Below, piece by piece: positions 3,088 through 20,535 of a DNA stretch of 64,000 nucleotides. The stretch's first letter is position 1. Every line of letters starts with the position of its first letter. The stretch is taken from assembly GCA_963846585.1 (NCBI GenBank), contig CAWJWO010000002.1, forward strand, positions 263,592 to 327,591, read 5' to 3'. This DNA is from an uncultured Bacteroidota bacterium. Lineage in GTDB: Bacteria > Bacteroidota > Bacteroidia > Bacteroidales > JAAUTT01. The notes beneath the pieces were generated by a model that was given only the letters and a program-made list of their open reading frames with translations, searched no databases and had not been told where the DNA came from. A program made the translations under genes and the position numbers.

Positions 3088-4740
3088 TTATTTAGATTTA
3101 CTAACATATTTCAACCTTAAAATATTAAGAGGATTACCTGAAAACCCTTTTATTGAAATTGGGCAAAAACGGACAGCCTGGTCATAATATAACGGCACTA
3201 TAGCAGCCTCCTGAACAATAATCCCATTCATTTTCCTGTATAATTCAATACGCTGCCGTTGATTACTGCAAATTGTTGCTTTTTCAAAATAACTATCGAA
3301 CAGCATATTTTTAAAATGACTATTGTTAGGGCCTTTAGGGCTGAAATTATGACTGTAAAACAGGGAAAGGTAATTTTCAGCGTCAGGATAATCGGCTATC
3401 CAGGAAGCCCTGTAAAATGATACTTTTGAATTTGCCACCATTTCGCGAAATGTTGCTCCGATACTTACTTCTATTTTCAAAGGGATGCCAACCTGTGCCA
3501 GATCATGTTGTATAAACTCGCATAAATCAAGGTAATCAGAGGTAGTATGCAGGGTGATCTCTGGCAGCCCTTTTCCATCAGGGAATCCGATCTCAGCAAG
3601 AAGTTGCCTTGCCTTATCCGGATTGTAACAATAACCTTCTGTATTCTCAGTATAACCCGGTAATCCTTTTGGTATAATACCCCATAATGCCTGGGTTCCA
3701 CAATTATTACGAAGATATTTCAGCATTTTTGCCCTGTCAAAGGATAAATTAATTGCCTTTCTTAAATTTTTATTCAACATCGGGTTACCCTTTAATTTTG
3801 ACGAATCGAGCATAAAACCTAAATATTCTGTATTTAAAAATGGTGAAACAATCATTCTGAACCTACTGGCATATTTAGGATTTAACTTTCCATTCCGTGT
3901 GATCAATTCATCCTTGTACACTGTTTGTACTCCTGATAAAAAATCGAGGTTACCCTTCATAAATTCAAGAAATTCTGATTGCTTGTCCTTTATAAATGTG
4001 ATCGCTATCGCATCAAGATACGGCAAACAATTACCAGAGGAATCTTTTTCAAAATAATTTGGGTTTTTTATTAATATGAGTTTCTCTCCCTCCTTCCACA
4101 TTTTAAACAGGAAAGGTCCCGACCCTATCGGATGGCTCCTGAAATCGGAGCCAAAATATTCTATTGCCTCGTGTGGTACAATTGATGTGTATGGCATAGA
4201 AAGCAATTCTGTAAAAGCTGCAAATGGTTTTTTCAGGCGGATACCGAACATAGAATCATTAAAAACCTCAAATCCCTTGTCTTTATATGTTTGATTAATG
4301 TTTTCAAATATCCATGATCCGGGTGAAGCAACTGCAGGGTCAATCAGCCTTTTGTAGCTAAATACTACGTCCCGGGATGTTAGTTTTCTTCCTTTGCCTG
4401 ATTGAAATATAGGATTGTTGTGAAAATAAACATCATTTCTCAAATAGAACGTGTACTCAAGTCCATCTTTTGAAATATCGTAATTCCTGGCCAATGAAGG
4501 ATGTATCTTCAATGAATCGTCAATTTCGAAAAGACGGTTAAAAAGCTGGAATACAACCCTCATATGCCTTTCATTGCTGGCAAATGCCGGATCTAATGAA
4601 TTAATCCCCTGCGTTTCGTTATACCTGAAAACAGTTCGTTTGTCATTATACTTTACATTGTAAGAACATGATATACATAGAAATATAATAGAAATAATAG
4701 AAATCTTAATAAGATTCATGTTTTCGAAATATAACTTCAC
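3088..4740 (-). CDS. ABC transporter substrate-binding protein, family 5 (peptide/oligopeptide-binding-like) lipoprotein
   Basis: 550-aa ORF with lipobox FLCISCSY. SBP_bac_5-type segments: FRYNETQGINSLDPAFA, LARNYDISKDGLEYTFYLRNDVYFHN, IKNPNYFEKD, ASWIADYPDAENYL. The start may be the internal Met at 4719. No permease or ATPase gene adjacent. Confidence 0.8.
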   Translation of the reverse strand: MKLYFENMNLIKISIISIIFLCISCSYNVKYNDKRTVFRYNETQGINSLDPAFASNERHMRVVFQLFNRLFEIDDSLKIHPSLARNYDISKDGLEYTFYLRNDVYFHNNPIFQSGKGRKLTSRDVVFSYKRLIDPAVASPGSWIFENINQTYKDKGFEVFNDSMFGIRLKKPFAAFTELLSMPYTSIVPHEAIEYFGSDFRSHPIGSGPFLFKMWKEGEKLILIKNPNYFEKDSSGNCLPYLDAIAITFIKDKQSEFLEFMKGNLDFLSGVQTVYKDELITRNGKLNPKYASRFRMIVSPFLNTEYLGFMLDSSKLKGNPMLNKNLRKAINLSFDRAKMLKYLRNNCGTQALWGIIPKGLPGYTENTEGYCYNPDKARQLLAEIGFPDGKGLPEITLHTTSDYLDLCEFIQHDLAQVGIPLKIEVSIGATFREMVANSKVSFYRASWIADYPDAENYLSLFYSHNFSPKGPNNSHFKNMLFDSYFEKATICSNQRQRIELYRKMNGIIVQEAAIVPLYYDQAVRFCPISIKGFSGNPLNILRLKYVSKSK

Positions 4741-17399: not shown

Positions 17400-18545
17400 A
17401 TGGATATTTATTCAAATGGTGCTCATGAGACGTTAAGACAAAAAGTTAAAAATTTTGCTGAAAATGAAGTTCGGCCCAAGGCACGTGAACTGGATGAAAA
17501 AGAACAATTTTCTCCTGAATTGAGCCTTAGAATGGGTGAACTGGGGTTATTCGGGCTTACAATTCCAAAAAAATACGGGGGACAGGGATATGATTATCTT
17601 TCATTAATTATAGCTGTGGAAGAACTTGCCAGGGTGGATAGCTCCCAGGCAGCCATTTTAGCCTCACATAATTCGCTTGGTATTGGTCCAATATATAATT
17701 ACGGAACTGAGGAACAACGCAAAAAGTATTTACCACAACTTTGTAATGGAAAAGCACTTTGGGCCTTTGGACTTACTGAAAACAATGCCGGATCAGATTC
17801 CCGCAGTACCGAATCCATCGCCTTATTAGATAACGATCATTGGATTATAAACGGAACAAAGATTTTTATTTCCAACGCTTCTGCACCAATTTCGGCTGGC
17901 GTTACTATCCAGGTAATTACTGGCCAAAACGATGGGCAAAAAGAGCTTTCCACAATTATTGTTGAACAGGGAACAAAGGGATATCGTGCCGAAAAAATTC
18001 ATGGAAAAATGATGTGGCGCGCCATCGATACTGCACGTTTGTATTTCGATAATGTAATTGTTCCTAAAGATAATTTATTGGGAGGATTAGGCAAAGGATC
18101 GGGGATTATGCTTGAAACTTTAGATTCAGGCAGATTATCAATAGCAGCTATGGGACTCGGTTTAGCAACCGGAGCCTTCGAAATGGCTATGAATTATTCA
18201 CATAAACGATGGCAATTTGGAAAACCTATTGCCAAATTTCAATCTATTGGCTTCAAATTAGCAGATATGGCTACCAAAATAGAACTGGCAAGAAATATAC
18301 TTTATAAAGCATGCTGGCTTAAAGATTCTAACCAACCTTTTGCAAAAGAAGCTGCCATGGCAAAACTATATTGTTCCGAAATTGCAAAAGAAATTGCTGA
18401 TGAATCACTTCAAATACATGGAGCCTATGGACTAATGCGCGAATACGATATTGAACGGTTTTACCGCGATCAAAGATTATTGCAAATTGGTGAAGGTACT
18501 TCAGAAATACTGAGAATAGTTATATCAAAACATCTTGGAATATAG
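17400..18545 (+). CDS. Acyl-CoA dehydrogenase (isovaleryl-CoA dehydrogenase-like by context)
   Basis: 381-aa ORF with ACAD motifs: WAFGLTENNAGSD, QFGKPIAKFQ, ERFYRDQRLLQIGEGTSEI. Substrate cannot be assigned from sequence alone. Confidence 0.85.
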   Translation: MDIYSNGAHETLRQKVKNFAENEVRPKARELDEKEQFSPELSLRMGELGLFGLTIPKKYGGQGYDYLSLIIAVEELARVDSSQAAILASHNSLGIGPIYNYGTEEQRKKYLPQLCNGKALWAFGLTENNAGSDSRSTESIALLDNDHWIINGTKIFISNASAPISAGVTIQVITGQNDGQKELSTIIVEQGTKGYRAEKIHGKMMWRAIDTARLYFDNVIVPKDNLLGGLGKGSGIMLETLDSGRLSIAAMGLGLATGAFEMAMNYSHKRWQFGKPIAKFQSIGFKLADMATKIELARNILYKACWLKDSNQPFAKEAAMAKLYCSEIAKEIADESLQIHGAYGLMREYDIERFYRDQRLLQIGEGTSEILRIVISKHLGI

Positions 18546-18549
18546 AATT

Positions 18550-18580
18550 TAGTGCATAGTGCTTAGTGCATAGTGCTTAG
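18550..18580 (+). repeat. TAGTGCW heptamer array
   Basis: tagtgcatagtgcttagtgcatagtgcttag, 5 nt after the ACAD stop. Confidence 0.9.
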
Positions 18581-18848
18581 GAGTAAGAGATTAGTATATT
18601 TATAAATTTTAAAACATTTTAATAGACTTGTAACTTGAAACCAGTAACTATTTACATACTACTTACTAATGCGAATTAAGAGTTAAAATATTTATACTTA
18701 TTATCTAATAATTAGCAGAATATCATTTACATTAGCCAACTTTAACCCCAACCCCTTAAAAAGCATAGCCGTCAGGTTATGTCTATATAGAGCAGAATGA
18801 TAGATATTTAGTGTAAATGTAATAAAATATTAGTGTAATTAAGAGCGT

Positions 18849-19337
18849 ATGTCAACGACTGGATTTGTATATATTATGACCAATAAGAACAAAACAACTT
18901 TATATATTGGGGTTACAAACAATTTATGCAGAAGAATACATGAGCATAAAAATCATTTGATAAATGACACTTTTACAGATAAGTACAATATTGAATACTG
19001 TATTTATTACGAAGAATTTCAATATTTTGATTTGGCAATACAAAGAGAAAAAGAATTAAAAAAGTGGAACCGTCAAAAGTTTATTTCGAGTGACGCGAGA
19101 AAACTCAAGATTAACAAAAAGAACCCCGAATGGAAAGTGCTGGTAACAGAGCGTGGCTTTGTTCGGAATAATAAATCATTTTCTCAACATGTTTCGGACA
19201 TAGTCAATGAATTACAACCAATTAAAGAGATTCCTCCCTGCGGTCGGAATGACGACCAGCAGAATTGTGGCGTTGCTGGAGGTGAAGAGAGTGCGGCAAA
19301 GCCGCACTCTCTTCACCTCCAGCTCTCTGACCAATAA
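18849..19337 (+). CDS. GIY-YIG nuclease family protein (COG2827-like) with atypical C-terminal extension
   Basis: N-terminal GFVYIMTNKNKTTLYIGVTNNLCRRIHEH...YYEEF...AIQREKELKKWNR is the GIY-YIG core. The last roughly 60 codons run through a GC-rich hairpin region and are probably not a native domain. A 9-codon in-frame insert (ISSDARKLK, about 19082-19108) overlaps a repeat-motif copy at 19080-19106. Confidence 0.75.
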   Translation: MSTTGFVYIMTNKNKTTLYIGVTNNLCRRIHEHKNHLINDTFTDKYNIEYCIYYEEFQYFDLAIQREKELKKWNRQKFISSDARKLKINKKNPEWKVLVTERGFVRNNKSFSQHVSDIVNELQPIKEIPPCGRNDDQQNCGVAGGEESAAKPHSLHLQLSDQ

Positions 19338-19369
19338 CGACAGTCATTTCGAGCGAAGCGAGAAATCTC
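19227..19369 (+). other. GC-rich compound stem-loop region at the 3-prime end of the GIY-YIG ORF
   Basis: The outer 27-nt arms 19227-19253 (gagattcctccctgcggtcggaatgac) and 19343-19369 (gtcatttcgagcgaagcgagaaatctc) are 22/27 complementary. They enclose a 6-bp hairpin (19256-19279) and a perfect 23-bp stem (19275-19323). Confidence 0.6.
19275..19323 (+). other. Perfect 23-bp inverted repeat with a 3-nt loop
   Basis: gctggaggtgaagagagtgcggc-aaa-gccgcactctcttcacctccagc read directly. GC-rich, inside an AT-rich locus. Confidence 0.9.
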
Positions 19370-19514
19370 AAATAAAGTATTATAATTGTATATAAGCATT
19401 TTACAAGCGTTAACCTGACGGCTATGCCTTTTTAAGGGGTTGGGGTTAAAAAATACTAAAATGAATAAATATTGTCTTGAATAATTATAACAATAATTAA
19501 ATCCTTAATTCGCA

Positions 19515-19535
19515 TTACGACTTACGACTTACGAC
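19515..19535 (+). repeat. (TTACGAC)x3 array
   Basis: ttacgacttacgacttacgac ends 7 nt before the fni ATG. The same unit occurs at 12305-12318 and 61692-61705. Confidence 0.9.
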
Positions 19536-19542
19536 TAAATTT

Positions 19543-20535
19543 ATGAATGATAGAAAAAAGGACCATATTGAACTGGCTTTGCAAGCTCAAACCTGCAAAA
19601 ATGAATTAGATATCAGGTTTGACTATGAACCATTATTGGCTGCTCATCCTAAAGGTGGGTTACCTTCATTTAATTTTCTTGGAAAAACTTTCCGTGCTCC
19701 TTTATGGGTATCCAGCATGACAGGTGGAACGAAAACAGCTGCTAATATTAACAGAAACCTCGCCATGTCATGTAAAGAATTCGGTTTCGGGATGGGTCTG
19801 GGTTCCTGTCGTGTACTTATTGACAATGATGATTATTTTGGAGATTTTAACGTTCGTGATATTATTGGCGATGATTTGCCTTTGTTTGCCAACCTGGGAA
19901 TTTGCCAGGTTGAACAACTTATTGAGAACGGAAAAACAGAAAAAATCATAAGATTGCGTGAAAAGCTGCGGGCAGACGGGTTAATAATACATGTTAATCC
20001 ATTGCAGGAATGGTATCAAAAAGAAGGAGATAAATTAAAATATCCTCCAATTGAGACAATTAAAAAATTGATTGACAAAACAGATATGCCTCTGATTGTT
20101 AAAGAAGTAGGTCAAGGTATAGGCCCGGCAAGCCTCAGTGCTTTATTTAAATTGCCACTTGCAGCAATTGAATTTGCCGCATTTGGAGGAACTAATTTCT
20201 CGAAACTTGAACTTATGCGTAATTCTTCGCAATTGAATGAAATTTTTGAACCTCTTACGAAAGTTGGAATGGATGCATTTCAAATGCTTGAAATTGTCAA
20301 TAATATTGTCAATACAGAAAAAAATCCCGGGTGTAATCAAATTATTATTAGTGGCGGGATTAACTCATTTTTAGACGGGTATTACCTGGTACAAAAGTCA
20401 CTTTTACAGGCTGTTTATGGACAGGCATCTTCAATGCTAAAATATGCTAAGGAAGATTATGTACAATTGCAATCTTATATTTCTCAACAAATCAAAGGGC
20501 TGGAGATAGCTTATGCCTTTTTACGAATAAAGTAA
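19543..20535 (+). CDS. fni: Type 2 isopentenyl-diphosphate delta-isomerase (FMN-dependent)
   Basis: 330-aa ORF: RKKDHIELAL, PLWVSSMTGGT, IVKEVGQGIGP, AAFGGTNF, typical of IDI-2. Confidence 0.9.
   Translation: MNDRKKDHIELALQAQTCKNELDIRFDYEPLLAAHPKGGLPSFNFLGKTFRAPLWVSSMTGGTKTAANINRNLAMSCKEFGFGMGLGSCRVLIDNDDYFGDFNVRDIIGDDLPLFANLGICQVEQLIENGKTEKIIRLREKLRADGLIIHVNPLQEWYQKEGDKLKYPPIETIKKLIDKTDMPLIVKEVGQGIGPASLSALFKLPLAAIEFAAFGGTNFSKLELMRNSSQLNEIFEPLTKVGMDAFQMLEIVNNIVNTEKNPGCNQIIISGGINSFLDGYYLVQKSLLQAVYGQASSMLKYAKEDYVQLQSYISQQIKGLEIAYAFLRIK

Follow-up and report, generated by a model that had tools for sequence, protein, structure and literature searches.

What is the GC-rich, hairpin-forming DNA into which a small GIY-YIG gene of an uncultured Bacteroidota bacterium reads, and how is it related to that gene? 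The locus lies in a 64,000-nucleotide stretch of contig CAWJWO010000002.1 (positions 263,592 to 327,591, forward strand, assembly GCA_963846585.1; Bacteroidales, JAAUTT01), hereafter the window, to which all coordinates refer unless a homologous locus is named. An initial annotation had described a nested compound hairpin at the 3' end of the open reading frame (ORF) together with a dispersed 27-nt motif, and had offered a nuclease recognition or cleavage site, a terminator, and a guide-like or regulatory RNA as candidate functions. By analogy with characterized enzymes, we consider it likely that the ORF encodes a single-stranded DNA (ssDNA) nuclease of the Ssn family and that the 27-nt motif is its cognate recognition hairpin (SRM). 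Among the candidates, the recognition or cleavage site fits best, the motif being the apparent Bacteroidota counterpart of the published NTS/SRM hairpin. The features on which this reading depends are listed below, with putative SRM copies referred to simply as SRMs.

18849–19337, plus strand: nuclease ORF of 162 aa, with an Ssn-like GIY-YIG core at residues ~5–95, an extension shared by Bacteroidota members to about residue 126 and then a read-through tail
19080–19106, plus strand: degenerate SRM copy within the ORF, TTTATTTCGAGTGACGCGAGAAAACTC, without the 5' GTC and present in the window lineage only
19227–19253, minus strand: SRM copy, GTCATTCCGACCGCAGGGAGGAATCTC, whose plus-strand translation is EIPPCGRND
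19275–19323, no strand assigned: central GC-rich hairpin with a perfect 23-bp stem and the loop AAA (inverted-repeat detection, DNA folding)
19343–19369, plus strand: SRM copy, GTCATTTCGAGCGAAGCGAGAAATCTC, with an anatomy that matches NTS (PMC11893778)

The predicted nuclease, the associated hairpin motif and the conserved module

Chenal et al. (2025, Nat Commun 16:2388; PMC11893778) identified the ~94-aa single-domain GIY-YIG proteins of cd10448, named Ssn, as endonucleases that cut ssDNA site-specifically. SsnA of Neisseria meningitidis binds the NTS hairpin repeat (CGTCATTCCCGCGMAVGCGGGAATCYRG) as ssDNA only and in one orientation, and cuts a few nucleotides upstream of it; the GTC located 5' of the palindrome is most important for cutting, and the C located 3' of it is most important for binding (PMC11893778).

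The window ORF carries a GIY-YIG domain (PF01541, residues 5–76, Pfam E = 1.2e-15). Its residues Y8, Y19 and E67, the equivalents of catalytic Y6, Y17 and E64 in the meningococcal enzyme, are invariant or nearly so in alignments of 27 and 55 sequences. The window protein aligns over the full length of P0241, a 95-aa betaproteobacterial protein, with 43% identity (E = 5e-25), and the P0241 gene (locus L087; homologous loci were labeled L001, L002 and so on) has canonical NTS repeats on both sides that match the published NTS/SRM pattern. More than 1000 homologues of the window ORF have a core of ~130 aa in common, and the tails that follow it differ widely in length. The nuclease core looks functional on the weak evidence of a pN/pS ratio of 0.30 between the window ORF and its L001 copy, which differ at just 21 positions. 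Other searches with the protein were less specific: Foldseek against PDB returned just generic GIY-YIG folds with weak E-values (nearest were UPF0213, Slx1 and the N-terminal domain of UvrC), the PDB sequence search gave no match, NCBIfam gave GIY-YIG-containing families only, all below threshold, PADLOC gave no credible defense-system match, and the plasmid (blastn) and phage (tblastn) collections gave none. A bait search with a consensus-like 95-aa sequence collected more than 8000 single-domain relatives and no named Neisseria protein.

The hairpin motif was characterized from 131–180 distinct copies collected at 80 Bacteroidota genome loci, the consensus being drawn from 131. It reads GTC-ATTYCGAGC-GAA-GCGAGRAAT-C, or in its general form GTC / ATTYC-GA-NC / GNA loop / GN-GA-GRAAT / C, and the window version, GTC-ATTTCGAGC-GAA-GCGAGAAAT-C-TC, has the same anatomy as NTS. 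In the 131 copies G1, T2 and C3 are conserved at 97–99% and C25 at 98%, and the functional determinants of NTS (GTC 5' of the palindrome, C 3' of it, and the hairpin-forming palindrome itself) are present. Stem pairs 7-21, 11-17 and 12-16 covary, with pair 11-17 occurring as CG in 81, GC in 48 and AT in 32 copies. Tandem G.A mismatches are nearly constant (G.A at 9.19 in 164 and A.G at 10.18 in 171 of 180 copies), and GNA loops make up 73%. Both C-GNA-G triloops, such as that of d(GCGAAGC), and tandem sheared G.A pairs are well known from DNA hairpins of unusual stability.

The motif is closely tied to the nuclease gene. The 1-kb zones around GIY-YIG genes make up 18% of the DNA examined and hold 266 of 300 copies. 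Among the 72 related loci with enough flanking sequence, 55 have a copy and 33 have the paired (-)/(+) module described below at the 3' end. Only one weak match was found in 642 kb of Bacteroidota-type metagenome DNA chosen for an unrelated repeat; the variant motif therefore appears confined to nuclease loci, unlike the Neisseria NTS. Within the 64-kb window a degenerate form of the pattern has exactly three sites (19083–19106 on the plus, 19227–19250 on the minus and 19346–19369 on the plus strand), where shuffled sequences expect none. All three belong to one locus, so the motif is not dispersed here as had been supposed.

The elements described initially at this locus are present: arms of 27 nt that are 22/27 complementary, a third copy that matches the right arm at 22 of 27 positions, a perfect stem of 23 bp closed by a 3-nt loop (19275–19297/19301–19323 by inverted-repeat detection), and an ORF that runs through the left arm and the central stem. 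The GC content likewise rises, to 54.5% in 19227–19369; the ORF core has 30% and the whole window 34%. As DNA, the 23-bp stem has a folding energy of -31.7 kcal/mol (z = -11.3); its 3' neighbor sequence is CTCTCTGACC. The third copy scores 21 with the position weight matrix, against 47 for each of the other two, and is a decayed SRM that has lost its GTC. It had been linked to a 9-codon insertion, ISSDARKLK, in the protein. The insertion exists, and is the same DNA motif translated, but relative to the closest homologue without an in-ORF copy (L086) it amounts to 18 extra nt (6 codons, net) alongside 13 replaced nucleotides.

The minus-strand SRM, the long perfect GC-rich hairpin and the plus-strand SRM together form a tripartite module, 143 nt long in the window, in which the 5' GTC ends of both SRMs point toward the central hairpin. 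This module recurs beside ssn-like genes across Bacteroidota, with a conserved spacing of 78–89 nt between adjacent (-) and (+) copies. Its central hairpin has at least 12 pairs in 52 of 57 distinct modules (median 18 bp). The tip is conserved as GGCGGC-NNN-GCCGCC with a 3-nt loop, whereas further down the stem the sequence varies freely and in a compensated manner, and compensatory changes occur at 18 of 19 central stem pairs. Even near-identical copies show this: in L083–L085 a T-A stem pair has become G-C through T>G on one side and A>C on the opposite side. The loop at 19298–19300, AAA in the window, reads TTT in L086 and AAAT in L083, and across lineages the loops are GAA or TTC, that is, GNA on one or the other strand.

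Covariation across homologous 3' regions, proposed initially as a check, proved strong. RNAalifold on an alignment of 50 modules gives three separate hairpins; 90.3% of the alignment cells are paired in this structure against 71.7% in shuffles, and the number of cells with changes on both sides is 312, where shuffles give 98. The observed covariation score, 0.488, is reached by none of 500 shuffles (0.152), while slid-partner controls score 0.10–0.15. The nested compound hairpin is a different matter. It is indeed the predicted fold of 19220–19375 with both RNA and DNA parameters (as RNA, -80.9 kcal/mol, z = -9.85), but the conserved fold consists of three independent hairpins. As a conserved structure, the nested arm-arm helix was rejected: it is 84.8% paired against 83.3% in shuffles and is broken at covarying positions in 25–33 of the 50 modules.

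Several points weigh against the assignment to Ssn and its SRM. P0241 serves as a proxy for the characterized SsnA, so the kinship given above is to this relative and not to SsnA or the cd10448 model itself. The ~95-aa core aligns end to end; the Bacteroidota proteins, at ~130 aa, keep a conserved C-terminal extension of ~35 aa that the characterized 94-aa enzymes are without; it has no recognized domain, and its AlphaFold2 model is of too low confidence to interpret. The published SRM pattern, HGTCWYN(0-2)YYVSBRHN(0-5)WNVSBRGN(0-2)RNCYNB, matches none of the 300 Bacteroidota copies and has no match in the window, although as a regular expression it recovers canonical NTS and both L087 repeats. 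The copies miss it because the A of the G.A pair sits where the pattern demands B (not A), and recognition is thus extrapolated to a variant hairpin; binding and cutting by the Bacteroidota members would likewise be carried over from the characterized enzymes. Taken in isolation, the window SRM hairpins have nearest-neighbor energies of -1.9 and -3.4 kcal/mol, not better than shuffles, and the predicted minimum of the window sequence is the nested arm-arm fold. The tandem periods of minus-strand SRM arrays hint at some reading-frame constraint: of 38 distinct combinations of locus and period, 30 are multiples of 3 (arrays upstream of genes included), compared to only 11 of 22 for plus-strand arrays. 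Finally, the conserved central hairpin has a role that published knowledge of Ssn does not explain.

If the Ssn assignment holds, the module may work as follows. The region would become single-stranded during replication, transformation or conjugation, and each single strand would display one correctly oriented SRM hairpin beside the central hairpin. By analogy with SsnA of N. meningitidis, we infer that the nuclease would bind the SRM and nick the DNA a few nucleotides to its 5' side, in the interval that separates it from the central hairpin; for the plus-strand copy of the window this would correspond to ~19336–19341.

Tandem and solitary arrangements were also observed. Minus-strand copies occur in tandem with periods of 42, 45, 48, 51, 54 or 63 nt (L002–L081, e.g., L023 10430–10772 and L006 10405–10480). 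A gene-less array at L006 14550–15203 holds twelve motif copies and three central hairpins at 4.2 kb from the nearest GIY-YIG gene, and smaller solo modules are found in L023 and L052. Many contigs of metagenome-assembled genomes stop less than a few hundred bases past the nuclease gene (L011, L023, L048, L052, L053, L060, L074 and L079), and some genomes have many copies (at least seven in Fux382_bin47 and at least four in PG1894_40); the repeat modules probably break short-read assemblies. At L009 10531–10647 the central hairpin contains runs of 25 or more G and C around an N stretch, probably an assembly or scaffolding artifact at the hairpin.

The cassette and its target

In the window lineage, the gene and its module are packaged in a unit with the following features.

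18764–19426, plus strand: cassette of 663 bp, gene and module, also present in other genomic contexts (L083/L084, L085 and L001)
18764–18780 and 19410–19426: 17-bp terminal inverted repeats of the cassette, CATAGCCGTCAGGTTA(A) and TTAACCTGACGGCTATG
18741–18763, no strand assigned: left half of the palindromic target repeat T, TTTAACCCCAACCCCTTAAAAAG
19427–19450, no strand assigned: right half of target repeat T, CCTTTTTAAGGGGTTGGGGTTAAA (inverted-repeat detection)
18667–18692 and 19492–19517, no strand assigned: outer inverted repeat of 26 nt, 85% complementary, enclosing the cassette and both target halves

Cassette copies that are 91–98% identical occupy four unrelated gene neighborhoods, namely those of the window, L083/L084, L085 and L001, with the window and L083/L084 contexts belonging to one assembly. 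In L083 and L085, direct repeats of 10 bp border the cassette (ccttaaaaag and ctttttaagg). Removal of the cassette and one 10-bp repeat leaves an identical 33-bp sequence, agttatagcccctttttaaggggttggggttaa, in opposite orientations at the two loci. The sequence interrupted by the cassette is the target repeat T, a palindrome of ~33 bp (AACCCCAACCCCTTAAAAAGGGGCTATAAC), whose uninterrupted form has at least 120 occurrences in peat, lake and wetland metagenome contigs (L088–L207); the window itself contains no empty copy. T is often paired at a distance of ~25 nt with a related palindromic unit, GTTAGCCCTCCTTTTTAAGGAGGGTTGGGAGG, and at times forms tandem arrays (period 48–49 in L114 and 105 in L127), so that it looks like a repeat family of Bacteroidota of the repetitive extragenic palindrome (REP) or bacterial interspersed mosaic element (BIME) type. 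A CRISPR-like reading of the tandem copies in L114 and L127 was rejected, as the "spacers" are identical.

Judged from sequence, the cassette inserts with a 10-bp target duplication at the center of a dispersed REP-like palindrome; in sequence data, such features are the usual evidence that an element transposes into a specific palindromic target. The window copy itself has inverted flanks of 10–11 bp (ccttaaaaag / cctttttaagg; 18754–18763 vs 19427–19437) in place of direct repeats; this may have arisen if copies in opposite orientation recombined or if the target loop flipped. Whether the unit of gene plus repeats is, or once was, a mobile element is a question raised by the discoverers of Ssn (PMC11893778). 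With inverted repeats, duplications, abundant empty sites and both orientations, the cassette provides direct evidence, from sequence, for the movement of an ssn cassette; it does not indicate which enzyme is responsible.

The single ORF of the cassette is the GIY-YIG protein, and no recognized transposase (DDE, HUH, serine or tyrosine recombinase) is encoded. One explanation, to which we give a little less than an even chance, is that the 663-bp unit is a non-autonomous passenger resembling a miniature inverted-repeat transposable element (MITE), that a DDE transposase acting in trans recognizes the 17-bp repeats, and that Ssn and its SRMs are cargo. Among insertion sequences (IS), perfect 17-bp inverted repeats together with a 10-bp duplication are the typical mark of a DDE transposase, and the inverted repeats are unlike the SRM. 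Outer terminal inverted repeats were also missing around the gene in six other lineages; the cassette is therefore specific to the window lineage, and its structure would be an add-on there. However, no partner IS with CATAGCCGTCAGGTTAA ends was seen in the window or in the 207 fetched loci, and the ORF has been kept intact at a pN/pS of about 0.3.

The converse proposal, that the cassette is an autonomous mobile element in which the Ssn nuclease drives mobility, the SRM/central-hairpin module is the cis-acting site and the loop of the REP-like palindrome is the target, strikes us as unlikely. If true, Ssn/SRM cassettes would represent a class of hairpin-dependent transposable or homing elements, and the clustering of SRMs at ssn genes would be explained.

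The outer inverted repeat may be a MITE-like shell and is not established as a part of the system; the left-flank similarity to L083/L084 (~75 bp) reaches it. Heptamer tandem repeats flank the element closely on both sides (TAGTGCA x4.4 at 18549–18580 and TTACGAC x3.1 at 19515–19536), and heptamer-like runs (CTTCTGT and CATCTTT) occur in the right flanks of L083 and L084.

DNA, RNA or protein

The region had been considered initially more likely a structured RNA or DNA element than protein-coding, a view that covariation and the low variation at the third codon position both uphold. Most features of the module point to DNA rather than RNA. Only 2.4% of 1060 central-stem pairs are G-U, and this near absence indicates a DNA-level constraint or a palindrome-homogenizing process rather than RNA structure. 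Among departures from the SRM stem, T-G and C-A are equally rare (8 vs 7).

It nevertheless deserves consideration that the module acts as RNA, either as a stable 3'-untranslated structure for termination or mRNA protection or as a small or guide RNA. The module overlaps the ORF and is transcribed with it, its hairpins covary strongly, the RNA fold given above is extremely stable, and the 5' arm of the central hairpin is 69% purine on the gene strand, a strand asymmetry. Against this stand the scarcity of G-U pairs and the equal rarity of T-G and C-A, as well as the GNA triloops closed by C-G and the tandem G.A pairs, which are hallmarks of stable DNA hairpins. Modules are also found upstream of genes and away from genes. 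The terminator suggested initially finds no T/U tract and none of the terminator-like sites sought in 18500–19600, and a scan of Rfam (E ≤ 1) gave chance matches only, such as mir-483 at 24.6 bits against a gathering score of 60. As for the guide-like or regulatory RNA, the DNA-type features just listed disfavor it, and RNA is not bound by the meningococcal SsnA (PMC11893778). An RNA role thus appears very improbable.

The protein tail is explained more simply by the DNA. Tails of homologues are the translated elements of the module, with EIPPxGRND repeats from the left arm, GGxAA... from the central hairpin, and VISSEARNL or VIPNE... repeats from the right arm. Other homologues end in DSSLRSE*, which is the same DNA motif in another frame with the stop codon supplied by the motif. 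It follows that this architecture is common to the family and is determined by the DNA. The initial annotation had held that orthologues conserving the tail as amino acids would speak for real coding; such conservation is seen only superficially, since EIPPxGRND recurs because the DNA motif is conserved. For 52 distinct frame-0 copies, codon-position entropy is 0.66 bits at position 1, 0.72 at position 2 and lowest, at 0.40, at position 3, and variation tracks hairpin anatomy (loop 1.19, covarying stem 0.78, and the rest 0.39 bits). Tails span 0 to about 300 residues, and proteins more than 90% identical end at 87, 138, 143, 156 or 162 aa. Given the low third-position variation and the variable ends, we regard the tail as tolerated read-through, and EIPPCGRNDD... 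in the window as an incidental reading of the module. That the tail is instead a genuine C-terminal repeat domain, with the DNA motif as a by-product of coding repeats, is scarcely credible: frame 0 is used in 38 of 58 loci, the minus-strand periods favor multiples of 3, and ORFs stay open for up to 425 codons, but the order of variation is that of the hairpin, the motif is also read in the two remaining frames, its copies are found in either orientation, some of them upstream of genes and others distant, tail length differs among near-identical proteins, and the spacer peptides are not conserved.

Comparison with known systems

To our knowledge, Ssn nucleases are the only site-specific endonucleases that cut ssDNA exclusively, and they are under development as ssDNA tools, so that each further nuclease-motif pair is a potential new specificity. 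Since the published search pattern misses the Bacteroidota hairpin, the reach of the family is probably underestimated. The window system is explained by the Ssn system published in 2025 and is therefore not categorically new. The Bacteroidota system is, however, distinct in motif chemistry, module architecture, protein extension, the confinement of repeats to the gene, and packaging as a mobile cassette; its inverted SRM arrangement and conserved central hairpin go beyond current knowledge of Ssn.

The similarities to the characterized Ssn systems are extensive. Both have a small GIY-YIG protein with a common core and catalytic residues. Both have an oriented hairpin repeat of 25–28 nt composed of GTC, an ATTCC... 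stem, ...GGAAT and C, and in both the repeats are concentrated at their own nuclease gene (76% of loci here, compared to SRMs near 71% of homologue genes in PMC11893778). The main text of that paper does not mention Bacteroid*. In contrast to the characterized systems, the Bacteroidota stem has tandem G.A pairs and a GNA triloop, the copies form inverted pairs around a conserved long GC hairpin, and the ORF runs into the repeats. The repeats also number hundreds per Neisseria genome, whereas those of Bacteroidota are not genome-wide, as the single weak match in metagenome DNA illustrates. At the betaproteobacterial locus L087, canonical NTS copies and a divergent NTS-like repeat on the opposite strand (CGTCGTCCTCGCGAAGGCGGGGAC) lie at 2917–2944, 2962–2990 and 3290–3352; this NTS/NTS-like pair is convergent, while the pairs in Bacteroidota are divergent.

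The module also resembles the NIMEs of Neisseria, in which inverted dRS3/NTS flank repeat units, and the enterobacterial BIMEs, which are clusters of REPs. All are composite and intergenic: inverted short hairpin repeats bracket another unit, and copy number is variable with tandem expansion. Here, in contrast, the bracketed unit is almost always a perfect hairpin of ~18–23 bp with a GGCGGC tip, and the modules stay beside the nuclease gene. This comparison draws in part on the discussion in PMC11893778.

An analogy with REP-RAYT and IS200/IS605 systems was suggested by the authors of the Ssn paper (PMC11893778). As in those systems, the enzyme gene here would be flanked by ssDNA hairpins that its product recognizes; the enzyme, however, is a GIY-YIG nuclease and not an HUH/Y1 transposase. 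IS200/IS605 elements, moreover, are without terminal inverted repeats or target duplication, both of which the cassette has. With regard to its target, the cassette is closest to IS1397 and ISKpn1, which insert site-specifically, in either orientation, at the center of a dispersed palindromic repeat. These are IS3-family elements with their own DDE transposase, whereas the cassette encodes a GIY-YIG protein only.

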